In this document: one piece after another, positions 2,310-27,659 of the stretch
Layout: each line of letters starts with the position of its first letter
Numbering within the stretch: position 1 is the first letter of the stretch
DNA from: Synechococcus sp. A15-28
Lineage (GTDB): Bacteria; Cyanobacteriota; Cyanobacteriia; PCC-6307; Cyanobiaceae
Length of the DNA: 32,000 nt
Assembly: GCF_014280175.1 (NCBI RefSeq)
Contig: NZ_CP047931.1
Coordinates: 2,100,001 to 2,132,000 of the forward strand
Reading direction: 5' to 3'
The notes under the pieces: generated by a model
What the model was told of the DNA's origin: nothing
The model's input: the letters and a program-made list of their open reading frames with translations, nothing else
Databases searched by the model: none
Translations under genes and position numbers: made by a program

Positions 2310-3350
2310 ATGAAATTACTTTCGTCTTTGTCAGATCGGGCCTGGAAACGGTCCCTAATGCTCAGCCTGCTTCTTGCCAGTCCTCTCGCCATTCAACCTG
2401 CTCATGCAGATGAATACTACATGTACGAGGATGAAATTGAATATGCTCTAGCGGAAAGGATCGAAAAAGAACGTCAAGATTTAGCATCTACTCGCGTGAG
2501 TGCCAATCCTGGATCCGATGATCCGACTCCTGCAGGCCAAAAAACAACATTTACAGATCCGCGTTTCTCGGGTGTTTTCAAGCTTGACTTCAAGTCTCAA
2601 TACATCTCATTCGGTGTTGTTTTACAAGATGAAGGTGTGACGATCCAGCCAATGCTGGCATTGCGATACACCTTCTTTGACAAGGTTCTTGACAATTCTG
2701 AAGACAGTTTCATTAATAATGTTACTGGCTTTATCTCATCCTGGAACGATATCAGCACCAATAAAGATCTCTCAAGCCCTACATCACCCTATCGTTACTA
2801 CACGGAAGCTGATTTGGTTACGGGTTTATCAGTCACCTTCCAAGATCGATTCAATCTGACGACCTCTCTCACTGAGCTTCAATCTCCGGCTGGTGCGTTC
2901 GGGCCTGGAGCATTCTTGAAAGCTGTTCTTTCAATGGATGACACGGGAATGGTTGTCGACAACTTTGCCTTGAAACCGCAATTCTTGTTGATCTACGAAA
3001 TTCCATGGGAGTCGCAGATTGGACTGCAGCCTGACGCCTTTCTTTTTGAGCCTGGCATTACACCCACTTATATTTTTGGGTCCGACACGAACTTCCCTGT
3101 CACTTTGGCAGTGCCAATGCGTGTTGGCCTCGGCAACAAGTTTTATGATGGCAATGATTATGGATTTTTCTCAGTGGGTCCAGAGTTTACGGTGCCAATT
3201 TCTGGTCTATCCAGTAAAACCATCAAAACGTATGCAAGCATTGGCTACACATATATCAATTTAGGCCCTACGACCACAGACTTTATTTTGAATGGTGATG
3301 GAAGCTCCAATAAGCATGTTTACAATTTTGGCCTAACGACCACCTTCTGA
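2310..3350 (+). CDS. Secreted putative outer-membrane beta-barrel protein of uncertain family (weak TorF/Gcw_chp-like N-terminal pattern), 346 aa
   Basis: It starts 6 nt after the previous stop, so it is probably co-transcribed. The long signal peptide ends in AIQPAHA|DEYY and is followed by an acidic helical segment (EDEIEYALAERIEKERQDL). SGVFKLDFKSQYISFGVVLQDEGVTIQPMLALRY resembles the SxYxFRGxxQxDxxPAxQ start of TorF-family porins; this comparison is from memory and not searched. The C-terminus is FGLTTTF. Confidence 0.6.
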   Translation: MKLLSSLSDRAWKRSLMLSLLLASPLAIQPAHADEYYMYEDEIEYALAERIEKERQDLASTRVSANPGSDDPTPAGQKTTFTDPRFSGVFKLDFKSQYISFGVVLQDEGVTIQPMLALRYTFFDKVLDNSEDSFINNVTGFISSWNDISTNKDLSSPTSPYRYYTEADLVTGLSVTFQDRFNLTTSLTELQSPAGAFGPGAFLKAVLSMDDTGMVVDNFALKPQFLLIYEIPWESQIGLQPDAFLFEPGITPTYIFGSDTNFPVTLAVPMRVGLGNKFYDGNDYGFFSVGPEFTVPISGLSSKTIKTYASIGYTYINLGPTTTDFILNGDGSSNKHVYNFGLTTTF

Positions 3351-3379
3351 GCTATTTGTTTTAAATAGCCAATAAATAT

Positions 3380-3420
3380 AAGGGAGTGTTTATTAGCAAA
3401 CACACCCTTATTTTGTCTTT
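3380..3420. terminator. Bidirectional intrinsic terminator between convergent genes
   Basis: The hairpin arms are aagggagtgttt and aaacacaccctt (12-bp stem, one mismatch, loop attagc). It is followed by attttgtcttt on the + strand and preceded by aataaatat, which is T-rich on the - strand. A second perfect 7-bp hairpin (gctattt gtttt aaatagc) lies at 3351-3369. Confidence 0.6.
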
Positions 3421-4939
3421 ATAGACTGAACTGTTTCACAGCCGTGCTGGCAGCAGCGAAGATCGCCCCTTGTGGATTACCACTCGTCAGCGAAGGTAAA
3501 ACGGATCCATCTACAACGCTCAATTGCTCTACACCGCGAACACTGAAGTCTGGACGACACACCGCATCCTCCGATGCACCCACAGCACAGGTCCCAACTG
3601 GATGCCAGATGGTTGTTGCGTACTTTTTCAAATAGTCAGCATCAGCAAAATGATCAGCCGGACAGAGTTCCTCGGCGCAATAGGGCTTCATGGCATCTGA
3701 CGATGCAATCTGACGAACAATCTCAAGGCCCTTCTGATAAACCTGTAGATCCGTTGGATCCTCCAGATAAGCAGGATTGATATCGAAGGTCACACCCTCG
3801 TCAGAGCGTACAGGCCGGATGGAGCCACGGCTGCGAGGACGCCCAAGAACGGGGACGAAAATCACCGAATGCTCAAGACCACCCTCGGGCAGAAACTCCT
3901 CGGCCACAAACCCATCGACTCCAGCCGAGAAGTTGATTTGCAAATCAGTTTCTAGACCGGCATTCAAGCCAGAGCGTGTAAACAACGCAGCTTCACAAAG
4001 AAAATCGGTTGCACCCGGATCAGCCTCTGAGCGATAGGCCACCATCACTCGCATATGGTCTGAAAGGTTGCGTCCGACCATTGGACGATCAACTTTGACA
4101 GGAATGCCCGCCGATTCAAGTGAATCCTTGGGACCAACACCTGACTTCATCAACAAGCCTGGGCTTTGCAAGGCCCCGGCGCTGAGGATGACATGTTTTG
4201 TCTCCAGCGTTTCACCGGAGGAAAGTTGAACGCCGAGGCAGCGACCGTTCTCAATCAGTAACGACTGAACATTGCTATTGCAGCGCACAGTTAAATTGGC
4301 TGGAAGAACACCTCTTAAATATGCATTCGCAGTGCTTGAACGTTTGGCTTCAGCATCAATGATCAGCTGCATGTAGTCGCAACGGTCATTCTGCTGAGAA
4401 CCATTGAAGTCGGCACGCTGATAACCCAGTGCCTGACAGGCCTCAAGGAATGAACCCGACGCAGCACTTGGGCGAGGAGGATGATTAATGGACATCCGGC
4501 CATTTTTCCCACGGAGCACATCCTCCCCGTAGTCTCCTAGGCAATGTTCCAGCTCCTTGAACATTGCTTGAAATTGATCAGGAGACCAATTCGAATCACC
4601 ACCAGTTGTTTGATACCACTCCTCGAAATTAAAACGACTCCCACGCACATACATCATGGCATTGATTGCCGTTCCACCTCCAAGGACCTTGCCTTGATTA
4701 ATCAAAACTTCCCGGCCACCCAGGCCGACTTGTGGGGTGGTTTTTAACTGCCAGTCGGCTTCTGTGAACCATGATTGGAACAGATTTGAGATTCCGGACT
4801 CAACAAAGCGAGGCTCCTGACCGTCAGTTCCGGACTCCAAGAGCAAAACCTCACCTTGGCCTGCATCTGCAAGACCACGGGCCAAGATGCAACCAGCTGC
4901 TCCGGCTCCTACAATAATTGTGTCGAATCGCTGACTCAT
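3419..4939 (-). CDS. GMC-family FAD-dependent oxidoreductase (choline/alcohol dehydrogenase-like), 506 aa
   Basis: The N-terminal FAD fingerprint is DTIIVGAGAAGCILARGLA...LLLESG. GMC signatures are present: GKVLGGGTAINAMMY, the active-site region WHPVGTCAVG and SVVDGSVLPSLTSGNPQGAIF. I preferred the ATG at 4939 (MSQRFD) over the track's TTG at 4972. Confidence 0.85.
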   Translation of the reverse strand: MSQRFDTIIVGAGAAGCILARGLADAGQGEVLLLESGTDGQEPRFVESGISNLFQSWFTEADWQLKTTPQVGLGGREVLINQGKVLGGGTAINAMMYVRGSRFNFEEWYQTTGGDSNWSPDQFQAMFKELEHCLGDYGEDVLRGKNGRMSINHPPRPSAASGSFLEACQALGYQRADFNGSQQNDRCDYMQLIIDAEAKRSSTANAYLRGVLPANLTVRCNSNVQSLLIENGRCLGVQLSSGETLETKHVILSAGALQSPGLLMKSGVGPKDSLESAGIPVKVDRPMVGRNLSDHMRVMVAYRSEADPGATDFLCEAALFTRSGLNAGLETDLQINFSAGVDGFVAEEFLPEGGLEHSVIFVPVLGRPRSRGSIRPVRSDEGVTFDINPAYLEDPTDLQVYQKGLEIVRQIASSDAMKPYCAEELCPADHFADADYLKKYATTIWHPVGTCAVGASEDAVCRPDFSVRGVEQLSVVDGSVLPSLTSGNPQGAIFAAASTAVKQFSL

Positions 4940-18228: not shown

Positions 18229-20551
18229 CCCCGGTTCGGGCGATGTCGATCACATCGGCCATGGAACGGATCTGATCCATCGTGCGGCTGAGCTGGTCGG
18301 AACCGCGCAGTTCCACCCGCAGATCGATCCTCGCCGGACGCCCCGCGGCGGTTTTCACCTGGGCATCGCTGACGTTGATGGCCCCATCGGACAGCCGCAT
18401 CAGGATGTCCTTGAGAATGCCGACGCGGTCGATCACCTCGATCCGCAGCTGCACCGGGAAGCGTTGCAGAGGCTGGGCACCGTGGGTGTTCCAGCGCACC
18501 GGTAACCGACGTTCCTTGGGAATCGTCTCGACGTTGGCGCACTCCTGCCGGTGAATGGTGATGCCGTGGTTGCCAAGGGCCACCGTGCCGACGATCGGTT
18601 CACCGGGAAGAGGGCTGCAGCAGCCCCCCAGGCGATAGTCCAGCCCTTCGAGGCCAAGGATCGTGTCCACGCTGTGGCGATGATCCGACGTGGTCTCCCT
18701 GGGGGGGACGAGGGCCCTGGCCACCTCCTCGTTGCTGGGGGGAGCCGTGTCCTGCTCGGCGATCAGGCGGATCTCCTCGCGGAAGCGATTGAGCACCTGT
18801 TGCAACGTCACCGCACCGAAGCCGAGGGAGGCCAGCAGGTCATCTGTGGAACCAACGTTGCAGCGCTGAGCCACACGGGCCATGGCCGCACCGTTCAGGA
18901 GAGCTTCGAAGCCATCCCGTCCCAGTTCGCGCTCCAGCAACTCCTTACCCCGTTCGATCGTCTCGTCCCGGTGACTGCGCTTGTACCACTGGCGAATGCG
19001 ATTGCGGGCCGTGGGGGTGGCGACGAAATTGAGCCAGTCCAGGCTCGGATGGGCCGTGTTGCTGGTGAGGATCTGAACAAAGTCACCGTTCTGCAACGCC
19101 GTGGCCAGGGGGCAGAGCCGGTCGTTGATACGCGCACCATGGCAGTGGTTGCCCACCTCAGAGTGAATCCGGTAGGCGAAGTCCACCGGCGTTGCCCCCT
19201 TGCGCAGCCCGACCACATCGCCCTTCGGCGTGAACACGAACACCTCTTCATCGAAGAGGTCCTCCTTGATCGATGAGAGGTAGTCGTTGTGGTCGTCGTT
19301 GCCACCCTCCTGCTGCCAGTCCACCAGTTGCCGCAGCCAGTTGAAGCGTTCCGCCGCGCTGCTGCTGCTGGCCGGTGAGCCGCCCTCCTTGTATTTCCAG
19401 TGCGCGGCGATGCCGAATTCCGCCACCCGGTGCATCTCGATGGTGCGGATCTGCACCTCAATCGGCCGATGGCGTCCGATGACGGCGGTGTGCAGGGATT
19501 GATAGCCGTTCGGTTTGGGCAGACCGATGTAGTCTTTGAAGCGACCGGGAATGGGTCGGAAGGTGTCGTGCACTACCGCCAAAGCACGGTAGCAGCTCTC
19601 GACACTCGGCGTGATGATCCGCAGCGCGGCCACGTCGTAGATCTCGTGGAACGCCTTCTGCTGACGCTGCATCTTGCTCCAGATGCCGTAGAGGTGCTTG
19701 GGACGACCACTCACCTCACAACCCTCGAGTCCGGCCTGAGCCAAGCGGTCGTTCAGCAGGGCGACAGTGACGCCGAGACGCTCCTCCCGCTCACTGCGCT
19801 TGCTGGCCACCTCCTGCTGGATCTCTCGGAACGCCTCCGGCTCCAGCAACTTGAAGGCCAGGTCCTCCAGTTCCCATTTGAACCGCCCGATGCCCAAGCG
19901 GTTAGCAAGGGGGGCGTAGATCTCGCGGGTCTCCCGGGCGATGCGCTGGCGCTTCTCCTCCTTGAGCGCCCCCAGCGTCCGCATGTTGTGGAGCCGGTCG
20001 GCCAGTTTCACCAGCACCACCCGGATATCACTGGCCATCGCCAGAAACATCCGCCGCAGGTTCTCGGCCTGGGCCTCGGTGCGGTTGTTGAAGTGAATGC
20101 CGCCCAGTTTCGTCACCCCCTCCACCAGCTCGCGCACCTCAGAACCGAAATGCAGCTCGATCTGGTCGGGGGTGACGTCGGTGTCCTCCACCACGTCGTG
20201 CAGGAACCCGGCCGCGATCACGCTGGCGCTGGCACCGATGTCCCTCAGCAGATCGGCAACGGCAACGGGGTGAACGATGTAGGGATCACCACTGGCCCGG
20301 AATTGGCCCTCGTGCAGCTGAAACCCGAAATCAAAGGCCGCCACCAATAGGGCTTCTGGATCCGTCGGGCAGCTCGTCCCCAGGCCCGGTGGAACGTTGA
20401 GGATGCACTGCCGCAACCACTCCGGCAGGGCGATCTCGTACTCGTCCGGATGGCGGACCGGATGACGCCTCAGCTCCGGGCCACCGCACTGCACAGGCGC
20501 CGGAGCACTCTCGGTCCGGGAAGAGTCCTGTGGTGAGGAAGCGTCGAGCAT
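18221..20551 (-). CDS. spoT: Bifunctional (p)ppGpp synthetase/hydrolase (RelA/SpoT homologue)
   Basis: It is 776 aa. It has an HD hydrolase region (HPVAVADLL...HDVVEDT), a synthetase region (YRALAVVHD, GYQSLHT, EVQIRT) and a TGS region (VFTPKGDVV). It also has a C-terminal ACT-like region. Confidence 0.92.
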   Translation of the reverse strand: MLDASSPQDSSRTESAPAPVQCGGPELRRHPVRHPDEYEIALPEWLRQCILNVPPGLGTSCPTDPEALLVAAFDFGFQLHEGQFRASGDPYIVHPVAVADLLRDIGASASVIAAGFLHDVVEDTDVTPDQIELHFGSEVRELVEGVTKLGGIHFNNRTEAQAENLRRMFLAMASDIRVVLVKLADRLHNMRTLGALKEEKRQRIARETREIYAPLANRLGIGRFKWELEDLAFKLLEPEAFREIQQEVASKRSEREERLGVTVALLNDRLAQAGLEGCEVSGRPKHLYGIWSKMQRQQKAFHEIYDVAALRIITPSVESCYRALAVVHDTFRPIPGRFKDYIGLPKPNGYQSLHTAVIGRHRPIEVQIRTIEMHRVAEFGIAAHWKYKEGGSPASSSSAAERFNWLRQLVDWQQEGGNDDHNDYLSSIKEDLFDEEVFVFTPKGDVVGLRKGATPVDFAYRIHSEVGNHCHGARINDRLCPLATALQNGDFVQILTSNTAHPSLDWLNFVATPTARNRIRQWYKRSHRDETIERGKELLERELGRDGFEALLNGAAMARVAQRCNVGSTDDLLASLGFGAVTLQQVLNRFREEIRLIAEQDTAPPSNEEVARALVPPRETTSDHRHSVDTILGLEGLDYRLGGCCSPLPGEPIVGTVALGNHGITIHRQECANVETIPKERRLPVRWNTHGAQPLQRFPVQLRIEVIDRVGILKDILMRLSDGAINVSDAQVKTAAGRPARIDLRVELRGSDQLSRTMDQIRSMADVIDIARTGVS

Positions 20552-20604
20552 CCGACCCAGCGGGTCAATCCATGGTATGCAGTGCTCGACCCCCCGTCCT
20601 CTCC

Positions 20605-22197
20605 ATGTCGCGCCCTGTCCTGGAGCTCGAACAGCTGCGGCTGCGCTACCCGGGCAGTGATCGCTGGACCCTCAATGGCCTTGACCTGAGCCTGATGTCC
20701 GGAGAGACCATGGCCCTGGTGGGCTCCTCGGGCTGTGGCAAGAGCACCGTGGCCCGCGCCGTGATGCAGTTGCTGCCCCCGGGCACCCAGTGCGAGGGAA
20801 GCTTGCGGTTGACCGGCATCGACCCACGGACGTTGGATCGCCCCGCTCTGCGACGGCTGCGGGGTCAGGCCGCCGGGCTGGTGTTTCAGGACCCGATGAC
20901 CCGGCTGAATCCGTTGATGACGGTCGGCGCTCATCTGCTGGATACCCTGAAGGCCCATCGACCGGACAGCAGCGACCGCTGGCGGCGCCAGCGCTGTGAT
21001 GAGCTGCTGGAGCGGGTGGGCATTGGCGCCCGGCGTCGGCGCGCGTTCCCCCATGAACTGAGCGGTGGCATGCGTCAGCGCCTGGCCATCGCCCTCGCCA
21101 TTGCGCTCGAACCGCCTCTGCTCATCGCCGATGAGCCCACCACCAGCCTGGATGTCGCCGTGGCCGGGCAGGTCATGGCCGAGCTGAGCGGTCTTTGCGC
21201 GGAAATGGGCAGTGCCCTGCTGTTGATCAGCCACGATCTGGCCATGGCAGCGCGCTGGTGTGAGCGCATGGCGATGCTCGATGGTGGCCTCAAGGTGGAG
21301 GACGGCCCGAGCCGACAGCTGCTGACGCAGCCCCGTTCCGAGGTCGGGCAGCGATTGGTGGCCTCGGCCCGGGCCCGGGAAGGGGGGCAGACGCCGTCGA
21401 GGCCCAAAGCTCAACCGGTGCTGACCGTGGACGCGATGCGCTGCTGGCACAGCGTCGGCGGCACCCCCTGGTCCCCCGTCTGGCTCAAGGCGGTGGATGG
21501 CATCAGCCTGGAGTTACGCGCCGGAGAAAGCCTCGGAGTCGTGGGAGCCTCCGGCTGCGGCAAGAGCACCCTCTGCCGGGCCTTGATGGGTCTCAACACC
21601 ATTCGCGGCGGCCGCGTTGACCTGTTGGGCCAGAACCTGCTCAACCTCAAGGGTGAACCGTTGCGCCAGGCACGCCGAGTCCTGCAGATGGTGTTTCAGG
21701 ACCCACTGGCCTGTCTCAATCCGGCCCTGAGCGTGGCGGAGGCCATTGCCGACCCCTTACTCATTCATGGCCTGTGCAGTAAGGCTGCCGCCCGCCAGCG
21801 GGCACGGGAGCTGATGGAGCGGGTTGGCCTCAACCCAGCTGAACAGTTCCAGGATCGTCTTCCCCGCCAACTCTCCGGCGGACAGCAACAGCGGGTGGCC
21901 ATTGCCCGGGCCCTGGCGCTGCAGCCGAAGGTGCTGATCTGCGACGAAAGCGTCAGCATGCTGGATGCTGAGGTGCAGGCCGAGGTGCTGGCGCTGCTGC
22001 GGGAGCTGCAGCAGGAGCTGGGGCTGGCGATGATTTTCGTGACGCACGACCTCTCAGTGGCCAGCGGGTTCTGTCATCGCGTGATCGTGTTGGACAAGGG
22101 GGAGATCGTGGAGGAAGGACCGGGTGAGCGGATCTTCCAGGCCCCTCAGGCCGCCATCAGCCGCACGCTGGTGGATGCATGTCCGCGCTTGCCTTGA
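20605..22197 (+). CDS. ABC transporter ATP-binding protein with two fused NBDs (Dpp/Opp/Nik-type)
   Basis: Walker A is GSSGCGKST and GASGCGKST. The signatures are [12 protein letters not shown] and [12 protein letters not shown]. Walker B is LLIADEPT and VLICDES. I chose the ATG at 20605 ([11 protein letters not shown]). Confidence 0.85.
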
Positions 22198-22226: not shown

Positions 22227-22934
22227 ATGGGATCCCGTGTCCGCACTGCTATCGCTGTGGCAGGTCTTCTGCTGATCTGGAGAGGATCACCGGCTCTCGC
22301 CACACCACCCCAGGTGGTGGAGGTGCCCGCCGGGCCGGCCTTTGTCCAGCGACCGGGGGAAGCTCAGATCCCCGCTCGTCAGGGGCAGTCGCTGATCCCA
22401 TCCACCCTGCTGCGCACCAGCAAACCCGGACGAATGCAGGTGAAGCTCAGCAACGGCCGCCAGTTCCGCATGGGGGGCGATGCCAAGCTGAAGCTGGCGG
22501 GTGCGGGCGTCGAACTGCTGAAGGGATCGATCATCGGCTGGATCAGTCCATCCATCACCAACCGACGTCCGTTTCAGATCCGCACGCGACTGGCCACCGC
22601 ATCAATCCAGGGAACCACGGTGTTTCTGGAACTCAATGATGACACCTTCCGCGTGTTCAGCTGGGAAGGGGCCGTGCAGGTGCGCACCAAGGACGGCGAG
22701 GAATTCACGCTGCAGAGCGGCCAGCAACTGCTGCTGGATCTCAAACGCCAGCTCGATGACACCCGGGGACGGGTCACGGATGCCATCGAATGGGAGCCCC
22801 CAGCCCCCATGGCCAACACCGACATTGATCGGAGGATGAAGGGCAGTGCCTTGATCAATGGCTTTTCGACACCGCTGGACACCCTTCCCATCATCGAGCG
22901 GGAACTGGGGACCAGCGCCGCGCCACGAGATTGA
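22227..22934 (+). CDS. Secreted FecR-domain protein
   Basis: The signal peptide is MGSRVRTAIAVAGLLLIWRGSPALA|TPP. The FecR-like beta-rich core reads GQSLIPSTLLRTSKPGRMQVKLSNGRQFRMGGDAKLKL ... IRTRLATASIQGTTVFLE ... VFSWEGAVQV. An alternative ATG lies at 22179. Confidence 0.7.
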   Translation: MGSRVRTAIAVAGLLLIWRGSPALATPPQVVEVPAGPAFVQRPGEAQIPARQGQSLIPSTLLRTSKPGRMQVKLSNGRQFRMGGDAKLKLAGAGVELLKGSIIGWISPSITNRRPFQIRTRLATASIQGTTVFLELNDDTFRVFSWEGAVQVRTKDGEEFTLQSGQQLLLDLKRQLDDTRGRVTDAIEWEPPAPMANTDIDRRMKGSALINGFSTPLDTLPIIERELGTSAAPRD

Positions 22935-24727
22935 TGAAGCGATGGGCCATGCCGGTGCTCTGGCGGCTGGGGGTGGTGATTCCGCTCCTGCTGGCACCGG
23001 CCTTGGCGACAGCCGATGCCCTCACCCACCAACTGCTGATGCAATGGCGCGGTGCCAGGCCGCTTCCGGATGACCTGGTTCTCATCGGCGTGGATGAAGC
23101 CTCCCTCGATCCGGCCTTGGCGGACTTCGGGCCTTGGCCATGGCCGCGCAGTGTTCAGGCCACCCTGGCCGCCCTCCCCCTTAAGCATGGGGCGTCGCAG
23201 GTGGTGTTCAACATCGTCCATTCCGGCGCCAGCGGTTTCGGGCCGGAGGACGACGCGGGCTTTGTGCAGCAGCTTCTGCCTTGGCGAGAGCGCGTTGTGC
23301 TCAGTGCGAGCTACATCCGCCAGCAGGCCAGTGACCTGGAACAGGTCCAACTGCGACGCCCTCAGGCCGAGCAATTCCCGAGGGTGGGCCTGTCGAGTTT
23401 CGTGCTGAACAGTTTCGGCGTGGTGGAGGCAACACCCGGCCAGGAGGAACTGGAGCGAATGCTCTCCGGATTTCCCCAACCCTGGCCCAAACCGCTGGCC
23501 AATGTGACTGCAGCCACTTCGGTGCCGCGGCATGACACCGGCCTGGAGGTGCTGGGTCCGGCCGGTCATATCCCGATCATCCCGGCCTGGGGGGTGACCG
23601 ACCTGCCGGCGGACAGCTGGAGGGGCAAGACGGTGATCATCGGCGCCACGGCCCCGTCTCTTGGAGATCAACTGGAAACACCCTTTGGTCAACTGAGCGG
23701 ATCGGAGGTGCTGTACGCCGCCATTGCAGGAGAACTCCAGGGCAAGGGGTTCCGCAGACCCCACCCGGCCCTCTGGAGTTGCCTTGCCCTGGTCTGGGGA
23801 CTGCTGCTGCTCTGGCGCATCAATGTGGGCCGGACCGCAGCCGCCACCACCACCGCAGGCCTCCTGCTCGCGGGGCTGGGGGGCGGAGTCACCGTGCTGG
23901 GCTGGGTCTCCGGTTTCTGGCTGCCAGCCACGGCGCTCTGTCTGTCGCCACTGCTCGGGGGTGGCCTGCGGGCGACGGCTCAGTTTCAGCACGAAAGTCG
24001 TCAGCGACGGTTTTTGCACACCGTGCTTTCTCGCCGCGTCTCCCCCACCCTGATGGCCGACATGGTCCGCTCTGGAGAAGCGGTGTGGACCCAGCTTGGG
24101 GGGCAACGAAGCCGCTGCGTGGTGCTGTTCACCGATCTGGTGGGGTTCACCACCCGCAGCAGCGTGATGGAACCCGACACGCTGTTCGCACTGATGAATC
24201 GCTACTTCGAGGCGATTTCTGCTCCTGTTCTGCAGGAGCAAGGACTGCTCGACAAGTTCATCGGTGATGCGCTGATGGCGGAATTCGGAATCCCCCACAA
24301 CCGCGGCGACCGGGAGGAAGCCCTGGCGGCAGTCCGTGCTGCTCTAGCGATGCAGAGCAATCTCGACAGCTTGAACACAACCCTGGAGGCTGAGGGGGTG
24401 GAACCCCTCGCCCAAGGCATTGGAATGCATTTCGGTGAGGTAATGGCTGGCAATCTCGGCTCAAGCCATCGCCTGGAGTACACGGTGATCGGTTCGGCGG
24501 TGAATGTGGCCAGCCGCCTGGAAGGGTTGACCCGACGCTTCAAGGAGCATCCGATCCTGATCAGTGGGGAACTGCGGGAGTTGCTCGGGGATGCCGTGGA
24601 GGTGGTCGACCTCGGGCCACAGATGGTGAAGGGATGGCCCACTCCCGTGCAGGTCTTCGGGCTGAAGGGGCTCAACACCCCAAAGACCGACCGATCTGAT
24701 CGGATTAACCTGAGACGGGCGGTTTGA
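22934..24727 (+). CDS. CHASE2 sensor-domain class III adenylate/guanylate cyclase (Lys/Thr, IIIb-type)
   Basis: An N-terminal TM/signal segment is followed by an extracytoplasmic region of about 250 aa (LIGVDEASL..., PWPRS, IIGATAPSLGDQ) and three TM helices (about residues 281-345). The catalytic domain carries VVLFTDLVGFT, DKFIGDALMAEFG, GIGMHFGEVMAGNLG and EYTVIGSAVNVASRLE. The ATG at 22934 shares 1 nt with the FecR stop (TGATG). Confidence 0.88.
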   Translation: MKRWAMPVLWRLGVVIPLLLAPALATADALTHQLLMQWRGARPLPDDLVLIGVDEASLDPALADFGPWPWPRSVQATLAALPLKHGASQVVFNIVHSGASGFGPEDDAGFVQQLLPWRERVVLSASYIRQQASDLEQVQLRRPQAEQFPRVGLSSFVLNSFGVVEATPGQEELERMLSGFPQPWPKPLANVTAATSVPRHDTGLEVLGPAGHIPIIPAWGVTDLPADSWRGKTVIIGATAPSLGDQLETPFGQLSGSEVLYAAIAGELQGKGFRRPHPALWSCLALVWGLLLLWRINVGRTAAATTTAGLLLAGLGGGVTVLGWVSGFWLPATALCLSPLLGGGLRATAQFQHESRQRRFLHTVLSRRVSPTLMADMVRSGEAVWTQLGGQRSRCVVLFTDLVGFTTRSSVMEPDTLFALMNRYFEAISAPVLQEQGLLDKFIGDALMAEFGIPHNRGDREEALAAVRAALAMQSNLDSLNTTLEAEGVEPLAQGIGMHFGEVMAGNLGSSHRLEYTVIGSAVNVASRLEGLTRRFKEHPILISGELRELLGDAVEVVDLGPQMVKGWPTPVQVFGLKGLNTPKTDRSDRINLRRAV

Positions 24728-24731
24728 GGCC

Positions 24732-25403
24732 ATGTCCTTCCCCTCTTTCCTGCGCGAACTGGGCCAGTTGATTCAGGAGCGTGCGGTGATCAGCTGCACT
24801 CATCCGCGCCTGGTGGCGATGGATACTGTCAATGAGCTGGCAGGACTCACCTGCGCCCATCCAGGTCTGATCACAGCATCCGGTTCAGACGTGCTCTCCC
24901 ACCTTGAGCGACATCCTGCCAAGGCAATTCTGTTCATCACAGAACATGTTCAAGACGGCCACGGCCTCGAGTTGATCCGAGAGGTGCATCGACGCGATTC
25001 GAGTCACCGCAGCGTGTTGATCCTCACGGACAATCACGGTCACAGCGTTCAAACACTGCAGGATCCAGCTTTAGCAGCTGTTGTGCTGGATCAGAACATC
25101 GGCGGGCCGACCTGCGTTCTCACCAAGGCCCTGGCCGCGGTGAACCACGGCGAACGCTTCGTGGACCCTGCCATCAGCACCGGCGCCAAGACAGACGTAA
25201 CGATGGAAAGCCTCAGCGACAGGGAACGGGAAGTACTGAGCCTGGTGGCCGACGGACTGAGCAATAAGGAAGTTGCAGAGCGCCTCCACCTCGCCTCCAC
25301 CACCGTGCGCGACCACATGCAATCCGTGATGCGCAAACTCCAGGTGAAAAGCCGCACCGGAGCGGCGGTGGCTGGGTTTCGGCAGGGACTGCTAACAGCC
25401 TGA
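24732..25403 (+). CDS. LuxR/NarL-type HTH transcriptional regulator with a degenerate (pseudo-)receiver domain
   Basis: The C-terminal HTH is LSDREREVLSLVADGLSNKEVAERLHLASTTVRDHMQSVMRKLQV. The N-terminal 135 aa align by eye with a REC fold but carry SCTHP, FITEH and VVLDQ at the DD, phospho-Asp and Lys positions. It starts 4 nt after the cyclase stop. Confidence 0.85.
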   Translation: MSFPSFLRELGQLIQERAVISCTHPRLVAMDTVNELAGLTCAHPGLITASGSDVLSHLERHPAKAILFITEHVQDGHGLELIREVHRRDSSHRSVLILTDNHGHSVQTLQDPALAAVVLDQNIGGPTCVLTKALAAVNHGERFVDPAISTGAKTDVTMESLSDREREVLSLVADGLSNKEVAERLHLASTTVRDHMQSVMRKLQVKSRTGAAVAGFRQGLLTA

Positions 25404-25615
25404 ATCAGGCTGCCCTGGACACGTCGCTGGACGCTGGCACGATCCTGTCCCGCGGCTGATCGACGACAATCAGATGCCGTCTGATGTGGGTCGGCATCAC
25501 CTGATTGCGCAGCGAGCGCAGCAGGGCAGACACCCAGATGCGGCGGCAACGCAAACGGATGGCCACGATCAATCGTTCCAAGAATTGGTCTATGGAAAAG
25601 AGTTCCTGCGATTTG

Positions 25616-26611: not shown

Positions 26612-27474
26612 GCCGGCAGCTCCAAGGCAATGCTGCCCAGGGCGGATTTACGGAAGTCATCCAACAAGCGCTGGGCCATCCGAGCCGTATCACCGGAGGT
26701 GTGGCGCTGGGCTGCAGCCTCCAACCAATAGGCGGGATCCGCTGTCTCGTCCTGGACGGGAATGCCGTAGCGCTTCTCCAGAACGGCCATGGCAACGCCA
26801 GAGGCCTGCTGCGGCTGCAGCTCCATCAGCAACTGCAGAAAGGCCTGAGCCACCAGCTCGCCGTCGTAGGCGGCCTGACCGATGTCGTCGCAGAGGGCCA
26901 GGTGAAGCGCCGCCTGCTGATCATCCAGCCGCGGCGGCAACACCCCGGGGGCATCGAGCAGATCGAGGTCCTGCCCCAGCCGCACCCAACGCAAGGTGCG
27001 GGTGACGCCAGCCCGCCGGGCACTGGCCACCACCTTCTGCTTCACCAGACGGTTGATCAGCGCTGACTTGCCCACGTTTGGGAAGCCCAGCGTCAGAGCC
27101 CGCACCGGGCGGGGCCGCATGCCGCGGTTGCGACGTCGTTCATTCAGCTGATCACCGGCTCGGATTGCTGCCTGCTGCACCTGCTTCACACCGGTGCCCG
27201 CCTTGGCATCGCACCAGACCGTGCGCTGGCCGCGGCCCTTGAACCAGGCCTCCCAGGCCTCCCGAGCCGCCGGCGTCACCATGTCGCGCCGGTTGATCAC
27301 CAGCAGGTGCTGCTTTCCCTTGAGCCAACGGTCCAGATGGGGATGCCCCGTCGCCAGGGGGATCCGGGCATCTCGGACTTCAATCACCAAATCCACCTTG
27401 TCGAGGTGTCGGCTGAGCTGCTGCTCCGCCTTGGCGATGTGGCCGGGGTACCACTGGATGGCCGGGGTACTCAC
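26608..27474 (-). CDS. rbgA: Ribosome biogenesis GTPase A (YlqF/RbgA, circularly permuted GTPase)
   Basis: [28 protein letters not shown] and [14 protein letters not shown] then DAPGV are present. The start is a GTG at 27474. Confidence 0.88.
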
Positions 27475-27593
27475 AGCACCACCGAGGTGTTGAAGCTCAC
27501 GCCGCCGGGTCCCATCACGTTCACAGCACCATTCAACTTGTCCGCCACGTCGGGGAATCCAGCGGCCATGGACAGGAGAACGGTCTCCAACAT
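27471..27593 (-). CDS. Candidate unannotated small ORF (40 aa) translationally coupled to rbgA
   Basis: It runs from the ATG at 27593 to a TGA at 27473-27471 and encodes [40 protein letters not shown]. Its stop overlaps the rbgA GTG (GTGA). G/C occupies 33 of 40 third positions. I recognise no homology. Confidence 0.35.
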
Positions 27594-27659
27594 GGGTGCT
27601 CGGTGATGCGAAAACACGGGTTAATCTCCTCCCGATTTCCTACCGCACGACACAACCCC

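Follow-up and report, generated by a model that had tools for sequence, protein, structure and literature searches.

A FecR-like/CHASE2 adenylate cyclase pair, probably a relocatable sensory module, beside a resident orphan LuxR-type regulator in Synechococcus sp. A15-28

Synechococcus sp. A15-28, a clade III strain according to the relevant passage of PMC7522525, carries three closely packed open reading frames (ORFs) on the (+) strand of the 32,000-nucleotide stretch analysed here (contig NZ_CP047931.1, positions 2,100,001 to 2,132,000; hereafter the window). They encode a FecR-domain protein, a CHASE2-containing cyclase and a LuxR/GerE-type regulator. The initial annotation of this DNA had proposed the three genes as a possible self-contained cassette with the LuxR protein as its dedicated output. 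The ORFs, coordinates, strand and junctions are all as it described them; the cassette itself fails co-conservation in both directions. The locus is probably a composite of a relocatable FecR-like/CHASE2-cyclase sensory module and a resident orphan LuxR regulator that is not the dedicated output of the cyclase. The genes and features concerned are as follows.

20530..22197, + strand: fused double ABC ATPase (YejF/Dpp/Opp/Nik-like), assigned from Pfam and synteny; ends 29 nt before the FecR-like gene
22227..22934, + strand: secreted FecR-domain protein, 235 aa, assigned from Pfam; 100% identical to the database entry 'FecR family protein' of Synechococcus sp. A15-28; start matches homologues
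22932..22936, + strand: TGATG stop/start overlap of the FecR-like and cyclase genes, of the translational-coupling type; relatives have 4-nt ATGA overlaps
22934..24727, + strand: CHASE2 receptor adenylate cyclase, 597 aa, assigned from Pfam, hydropathy and the nearest solved catalytic domain, CyaB (3r5g)
22973..23809, + strand: CHASE2 domain (aa 14-292); the motifs WPWPR and GxTA..L.D...TP are invariant
24113..24658, + strand: class III cyclase catalytic domain, aa 394-575, from alignment to CyaB
24700..24731, + strand: LuxR leader of ~25-30 nt (gACTAaCyTGA...), alike after cyclase or ABC ATPase genes; short alignment, weak
24732..25403, + strand: LuxR/NarL-type regulator, 223 aa; pseudo-receiver at ~aa 17-140, GerE helix-turn-helix at aa 159-213

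The first two genes overlap, with one base shared by the TGA stop codon of the FecR-like gene (22932-22934) and the ATG of the cyclase gene (22934-22936), and at the corresponding junction of the related loci L002, L003, L004 and L006 the overlap is a 4-nt ATGA. In some database gene calls the cyclase begins 15 nt further on, at the second methionine, 22949 (P0001, 592 aa); the start at 22934 is favoured because relatives share both a basic N-terminus (MKRW/MMKRW/MRAR) and the ATGA overlaps. Exact protein look-ups with the cyclase and FecR sequences of the window returned no record, for which differences in start codon are probably to blame. The cyclase stop codon (24725-24727) is followed after a 4-nt gap by the LuxR ATG at 24732. 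A promoter and terminator scan of the locus yielded no terminator-like site and a single, weak match to a promoter, within the coding sequence of the FecR-like protein. The wider window holds housekeeping genes: MnmE, DUF2062, SpoT, the fused ABC ATPase, RluD, a GTPase and PGK.

The first protein matches the FecR family (PF04773) at E 8.9e-10 and 39.3 bits against a cut-off of 24, with the FecR domain at aa 62-151. A Sec-type signal peptide occupies aa 1-25 (MGSRVRTAIAVAGLLLIWRGSPALA, followed by TPP) and the protein is otherwise without a hydrophobic segment. Family alignments show very strong conservation, including a C-terminal motif, LINGFSTPL(D/E)TLPxIERELG, together with a variable linker of which A15-28 has lost the greater part. 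At 22740-22800 of the window (~aa 172-190) the A15-28 protein is without ~15-35 linker residues (GRLDGLEAALG… and an acidic, low-complexity stretch) that lie between the FecR domain and the C-terminal motif in its relatives. The picocyanobacterial partners are small, soluble, secreted proteins of 235-300 aa. A longer ORF starting at 22179, with a lipobox-like LVGC, was considered and rejected because the homologues begin with a signal peptide of the MGSR type, conservation does not reach into the added part, and the longer frame would overlap the ABC gene.

A PDB sequence search with the FecR-like protein found no relative, and a PDB fold search with a poor AlphaFold model (mean pLDDT 56) gave nothing at E <= 0.001; the second-ranked fold match from that model was the PupR CCSSD (6ovk), at a non-significant E of 0.07. 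Like the FecR/PupR anti-sigma factors, the protein carries the periplasmic PF04773 domain, a protein-protein interaction module. Unlike them, it has neither an N-terminal cytoplasmic anti-sigma domain nor a transmembrane helix as anchor, and among the window ORFs scanned there was no match to a sigma-70 r2/r4 extracytoplasmic function (ECF) sigma factor or to a TonB-dependent receptor that could act as transducer.

The second protein matches CHASE2 (PF05226: E 3.6e-23, 82.9 bits against a cut-off of 26.3) and Guanylate_cyc (PF00211: E 1.2e-17, 64.5 bits against 21.9). Hydropathy marks hydrophobic segments at ~residues 8-30, 278-298 and 307-328 and a weaker one at ~329-345, from which the predicted layout is a first transmembrane segment, a periplasmic CHASE2 domain, a membrane block and a cytoplasmic class IIIb catalytic domain. 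The topology first proposed, with the FecR protein and CHASE2 domain in the periplasm and the cyclase domain in the cytoplasm, agrees with the signal peptide and the hydropathy, and the domain calls for all three proteins are supported.

The nearest solved catalytic domain is that of Pseudomonas aeruginosa CyaB (3r5g, E 1.9e-32). In class III cyclases two aspartates bind metal, a Lys/Thr pair specifies the substrate and an Asn/Arg pair acts on the transition state. The metal-binding D401 (FTD) and D445 (IGD) and the transition-state residues N524 and R528 (AVNVASRLE) align with CyaB residues, as does the adenine-specifying K441 with the CyaB lysine, where the guanylate cyclase Cya2 (2w01) has Glu; the substrate-specifying T517 lies in EYT, 7 residues before N524. 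Since all of these residues are kept, the protein is predicted from its sequence to be a competent, homodimeric and ATP-specific class IIIb adenylate cyclase. To our knowledge no direct ligand of a CHASE2 domain is known, so that the same statement in the initial annotation is still roughly right; in the nearest case, that of Sinorhizobium meliloti, the plant protein uL2 acts indirectly, through NsrA.

The association of the first two genes extends well beyond A15-28. Loci were gathered by looking up gene contexts and by scanning a single genome for each species, giving 59 from picocyanobacteria (marine Synechococcus, Cyanobium, Vulcanococcus and Aphanothece) and 21 from other phyla. Two broad CHASE2 alignments proved too diverse for the locus scan and a four-sequence alignment was used; FecR-like ORFs were detected with hidden Markov models (HMMs) built from the window and its relatives, and distant FecR genes were verified with Pfam. 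Of the 56 picocyanobacterial loci with upstream DNA, 55 have a same-strand FecR-like ORF as the immediate upstream neighbour, and L001-L007 likewise have one directly upstream of the cyclase. Among the distant loci, a FecR gene abuts the CHASE2 kinase or cyclase gene on its upstream side in 8 of 21, the other 13 having ordinary neighbours. A LysM+FecR gene precedes CHASE2 histidine kinases in Sphingomonas, Caulobacter, Alsobacter and Novosphingobium, a FecR gene precedes a CHASE2 hybrid kinase in a Terriglobia genome, and in Rhodobacteraceae (L077, 3310-6753; L078, 1453-4737) a FecR+TPR protein of ~1,100 aa is encoded directly upstream of a CHASE2 adenylate cyclase. The recurrence of FecR and CHASE2 genes that the initial annotation had mentioned is thus real, in these counts as in the literature. 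FecR pairing goes with the CHASE2 sensor, whatever output domain is attached, and since it also spans phyla, it points to the periplasmic FecR partner as belonging to the CHASE2 input.

Several arrangements at these loci go beyond the simple pair. In the Rhodobacteraceae protein an N-terminal FecR domain is combined with TPR repeats and an extended C-terminal portion that looks like an outer-membrane barrel and ends in an aromatic residue, and the protein resembles the 'FecR-domain outer membrane protein' plus the TPR protein of Campylobacterota. In freshwater Cyanobium/Synechococcus (L026-L073) a second CHASE2 cyclase paralogue lies a few kb from the first and is preceded by 1-2 tandem FecR-like genes, up to 3 in L034 (9825-14884; another example is L033 at 637-1428, 1373-2518 and 2629-4368). 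In one marine Synechococcus metagenome-assembled genome (L020, 6248-7989) the cyclase gene is preceded by a tandem of two FecR-like genes.

FecR–CHASE2 pairing is already in the literature, and the picocyanobacterial version is, in our reading, an additional member of this known kind of sensor pair. In S. meliloti the cluster clr (SMc02175)–cyaD1 (SMc02176)–smc02177–smc02178 includes the FecR-domain gene smc02177 (PMC5498481), and its CHASE2 cyclases respond to the plant protein signal uL2 via the outer-membrane protein NsrA, according to the relevant passage of PMC13001267. The CyaD1/CyaD2/CyaK–Clr system shares with the present pair a CHASE2 cyclase gene beside the gene of a non-cytoplasmic FecR-domain protein, with cyclic AMP (cAMP) as messenger, and the place of clr beside the cyclase recalls the Crp-family regulator beside the pair in other picocyanobacteria (PROS-U-1, L001). 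It differs in that the plant signal arrives via the NsrA barrel, whereas no NsrA-like gene turned up in the window, where no search was aimed at one; in that clr is linked to the cyclase, whereas the window is without a Crp gene; and in that its FecR gene does not lie upstream of the cyclase in translational coupling with it, as far as the relevant passages of PMC5498481 and PMC13001267 describe it.

In Campylobacterota, a cluster comprises a CHASE2 cyclase, a cAMP phosphodiesterase, an outer-membrane protein with a FecR domain, and a TPR protein (PMC9239204). Here, too, the CHASE2 cyclase is clustered with a FecR-domain envelope protein, and the distribution is patchy and shaped by horizontal transfer (PMC9239204), whereas the picocyanobacterial partner is small and secreted, has no TPR or barrel part and has no adjacent phosphodiesterase. 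The Burkholderia 'BiofilmReg' operon runs response regulator – LysM/FecR protein (COG4254) – CHASE2 histidine kinase – DUF4136 (PMC5192318), and thus places a gene for a FecR-domain periplasmic protein immediately upstream of a CHASE2 sensor gene, overlapping or abutting it; the LysM+FecR and CHASE2-kinase genes of Sphingomonas, Caulobacter, Alsobacter and Novosphingobium repeat this layout. The Burkholderia output, however, is a histidine kinase whose cognate regulator, phosphorylatable and of CreB type, is encoded in the operon, whereas in A15-28 the output is a cyclase, the neighbouring regulator is non-phosphorylatable, of NarL type and not co-conserved, and the FecR-domain protein has no LysM.

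The S. meliloti case bears directly on what the FecR-like protein does. Mutation of smc02177 gives the phenotype also seen in cyclase and Clr mutants, the gene is a Clr target, and it is not required for perception of the plant signal (PMC5498481). The FecR-like protein could by the same token be an envelope effector or accessory that is co-expressed with the cyclase and acts downstream of, or parallel to, cAMP, and not be an input. Against this, the FecR gene lies upstream of, and coupled to, CHASE2 genes with cyclase, kinase or hybrid kinase output; because the pairing with CHASE2 holds for any output domain, the gene is tied to the periplasmic sensor half. The FecR-like family is moreover extremely conserved alongside the CHASE2 domain, and S. 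meliloti has three redundant CHASE2 cyclases of which only one is FecR-linked. An effector role is therefore unlikely, although it retains some weight.

The third gene encodes a protein that matches GerE (PF00196) at E 5.2e-20 and 71.3 bits and has no Pfam match to Response_reg (PF00072). Its alignment with genuine NarL/FixJ regulators runs over the full length, the profile of its family matches DevR, VraR and NarL with the receiver part included, and its AlphaFold model (pLDDT 76) retrieves full-length LiaR, VraR and RcsB in Foldseek at E 6e-11 to 1e-8. When the family is aligned with true NarL/FixJ regulators, the receiver (REC) chemistry is seen to be replaced in all 14 members aligned: the DD pair has become C-T/V/I, the phospho-acceptor Asp is Thr or Ser and the beta-5 Lys is Asp, and the replaced phospho-acceptor position is followed across the family by an invariant E-H. 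The pseudo-receiver call is accordingly borne out, with the DD, the phospho-acceptor and the Lys replaced family-wide and the REC fold retained. It had also been stated that no histidine kinase is near, which holds among the window ORFs scanned and is beside the point, because the receiver is not phosphorylatable at its canonical site.

The LuxR family is narrow, with ~110 clusters at 52-99% identity and then a gap to ordinary regulators at ~30%. The suggestion that the family is rare in cultured genomes was dropped, as the cluster listings include A15-28 (QNI43584.1) and a BOUM118 member. Literature on the WH8102 orthologue, judged by titles and abstracts, yielded nothing relevant. Three further members (L008-L010), 64% identical to that of the window, lie on marine contigs of 43-45% GC beside Peptidase_S8 and outside the SpoT-ABC block; the family therefore also occurs in a lower-GC picocyanobacterial lineage, in another context.

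Foldseek also gave a full-length fold match of the LuxR model to VpsT. In both proteins a GerE helix-turn-helix is joined to a REC-like domain that lacks the usual phosphorylation chemistry, and VpsT is a REC-LuxR protein under cyclic dinucleotide control. Since the LuxR receiver cannot be phosphorylated at its canonical site, it needs some other input, and the two observations would suit a single pathway in which a FecR co-sensor acts on the CHASE2 cyclase and the latter, through cAMP or direct contact, on the LuxR protein as output, at least in A15-28-type lineages. The cyclic di-GMP (c-di-GMP)-binding motif W[FLM][TS]R of VpsT is, however, absent from the A15-28 protein, which contains no Trp at all. 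Nucleotide binding is not predicted, and the protein has no cyclic nucleotide monophosphate (cNMP)-binding domain.

Gene neighbourhoods bear on the same question from both sides. Within 8 kb of the pair, the LuxR family is present in none of the 59 picocyanobacterial genome loci, and L001 and L002 likewise have the pair without LuxR. Conversely, LuxR directly follows the same ABC ATPase gene, in the absence of the FecR-like and cyclase genes, in L175, L176 and L012-L014 (gaps of 23-49 nt) and, with a longer gap, in L011. The two relatives closest to the window by flanking genes (ABC 93% and 90% identical) both have ABC followed by LuxR and no pair. In the closest, L175 (ABC 92.6%, LuxR 82.5% identical), the order is DUF2062–SpoT–ABC–LuxR–RluD–GTPase–PGK, which is that of the window minus the pair, plus a gene for a universal stress protein (Usp) before PGK. 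The whole triplet is found only in the window, L003, L004, L006 and L097, with L005 and L007 partial; when metagenomes were scanned with the alignment of the LuxR family, generic GerE matches dominated the output, and only L095-L098 were useful from it. The genes are therefore not co-conserved in relatives, the very outcome that the initial annotation had named as refuting its cassette: the pair occurs without LuxR and LuxR without the pair. LuxR belongs to a core block of SpoT, ABC ATPase, LuxR and RluD and not to the conserved pair module, and the gene that constantly accompanies it encodes the ABC ATPase and neither a kinase nor a cyclase.

Sequence comparisons of the regulator and its flanks point the same way. 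In neighbour-joining trees of ABC and of LuxR, the pair-bearing loci fall into three separate groups among pair-less ones, and are thus polyphyletic. A single alignment column of LuxR is fixed among the pair-linked copies while missing from the pair-less ones, the rest of the differences lying in the variable linker (a small sample). The 4-nt gap may simply reflect that the cyclase frame runs into the LuxR leader, on the weak evidence of a short alignment. The presence of the pair at the ABC/LuxR junction in some lineages could be due either to repeated loss or to recombinational exchange.

The same pattern could be taken to mean that the pair is a recent foreign insertion in A15-28, a mobile cassette that is not integrated into host regulation. 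Its presence at the site is patchy, cyclase islands belong to the flexible genome according to the relevant passage of PMC7522525, and L003, whose cyclase is 89% identical to that of the window while the flanking ABC and LuxR are 83% and 70% identical, suggests cassette exchange by recombination. The pair shows no anomaly of GC or skew, however, and no meaningful flanking repeats, hence no mobile-element signature; no integrase or tRNA was found among the window ORFs and flanks scanned, and the closest homologues are all picocyanobacterial. Repeated loss from an ancestral site accounts for the pattern equally well, and a recent insertion appears distinctly unlikely.

The single pathway from FecR co-sensor to LuxR output draws further on the tight same-strand packing (1-nt overlap, 4-nt gap) and on the survival of the triplet in five independent contigs despite 30-40% protein divergence, but it is very improbable, given that co-conservation fails in both directions, that the regulator keeps company with the ABC ATPase and not the cyclase, that its leader is alike with or without the pair (short alignment), that it has no cNMP-binding domain, VpsT motif or Trp, that no pair-specific residue signature emerges from the small sample and that elsewhere the pair is accompanied by canonical cNMP-binding effectors.

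In 31 of the 59 picocyanobacterial loci a cNMP-binding ORF is encoded no more than 8 kb from the pair. Such effectors are well illustrated by PROS-U-1 (L001), where the pair lies among genes for an MscS-cNMP channel, a cNMP-MGS protein, a Crp regulator and a CHAT protein. This setting is that of the marine Synechococcus island module Syn_GI122, in which adenylate cyclases lie near CRP, a cAMP-regulated MscS channel and CHAT, according to the relevant passage of Doré et al. (2020, PMC7522525); that passage does not mention a FecR partner. The A15-28 pair, by contrast, is outside such an island and embedded in a core housekeeping block, and no cNMP-binding or Crp-family gene was found among the ORFs scanned in the 32-kb window.

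Under the favoured composite reading, the FecR-like protein would meet the CHASE2 domain in the periplasm and set or relay its input, and the cyclase would then make cAMP in the cytoplasm. The cAMP would act through cNMP-binding proteins encoded outside the window, such as Crp-type regulators, MscS-cNMP channels and cNMP-MGS proteins, while the LuxR protein, its receiver devoid of phosphorylation residues, would be a resident orphan of the SpoT / ABC ATPase / LuxR / RluD block. In A15-28 and a few other lineages the cyclase and LuxR genes are probably co-transcribed, because the pair sits exactly between ABC and LuxR and no terminator was found. That the regulator is not a dedicated cyclase output follows from an adjacency that is lineage-specific and patchy.

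Three points weigh against this reading. The triplet is kept at cyclase identities of 69-98% and LuxR identities of 59-100%, with gaps of 4-39 nt and no terminator found; because it persists across such divergence with short gaps, co-expression and a lineage-specific link are possible. The dispensability of smc02177 for signal perception in S. meliloti (PMC5498481) makes an obligate co-sensor role less likely. Finally, the figure of 31 loci with a nearby cNMP-binding ORF is a raw count, obtained with a home-made HMM from Pfam-annotated seeds and without a genome-wide background frequency.

It would be a long shot that in the A15-28, L003/L006 and L004/L097 groups the REC-like domain of LuxR has been recruited as a cyclase output that binds cAMP or the cyclase itself; it would then be a second-messenger-controlled pseudo-receiver, analogous to VpsT with c-di-GMP. 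In a weaker version of this remote possibility, the secreted FecR-like protein would be the co-receptor, long looked for, that binds the ligand for CHASE2 domains at large. The analysis sets a real, widespread and unexplained sensor pair apart from a coincidental neighbour, and since the picocyanobacterial FecR-like partner is small, soluble and extremely conserved, it is convenient for interaction tests. The pair also offers a system for asking what abundant marine Synechococcus sense via cAMP, and the orphan pseudo-receiver LuxR family of these organisms, which is uncharacterised, is flagged here.

A few further features of the surrounding block were noted. In L012, a pair-less locus, a HisKA/HATPase histidine kinase gene (498-1976) lies between DUF2062 and SpoT, ~4 kb upstream of LuxR; unlike L012, the window has no histidine kinase gene between DUF2062 and SpoT. 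Downstream of LuxR and convergent with it, a basic ORF of 58 aa (25405-25581, − strand; …IRLRCRRIWVSALLRSLRNQVMPTHIRRHLIVVDQPR…SRAA) ends 1 nt from the LuxR stop codon. It matches no Pfam family and is kept in L004 (8458-8637) and L176 (6214-6402), while L006 and L011 have called genes of comparable length. Finally, the Usp gene lies between GTPase and PGK in L004 (10706-11092), L006 (7955-8338) and L175 (8173-8532), while the corresponding interval of the window (27474-27603) has no room for it, so that in this syntenic block the Usp gene, like the pair, is present in some loci and absent from others.

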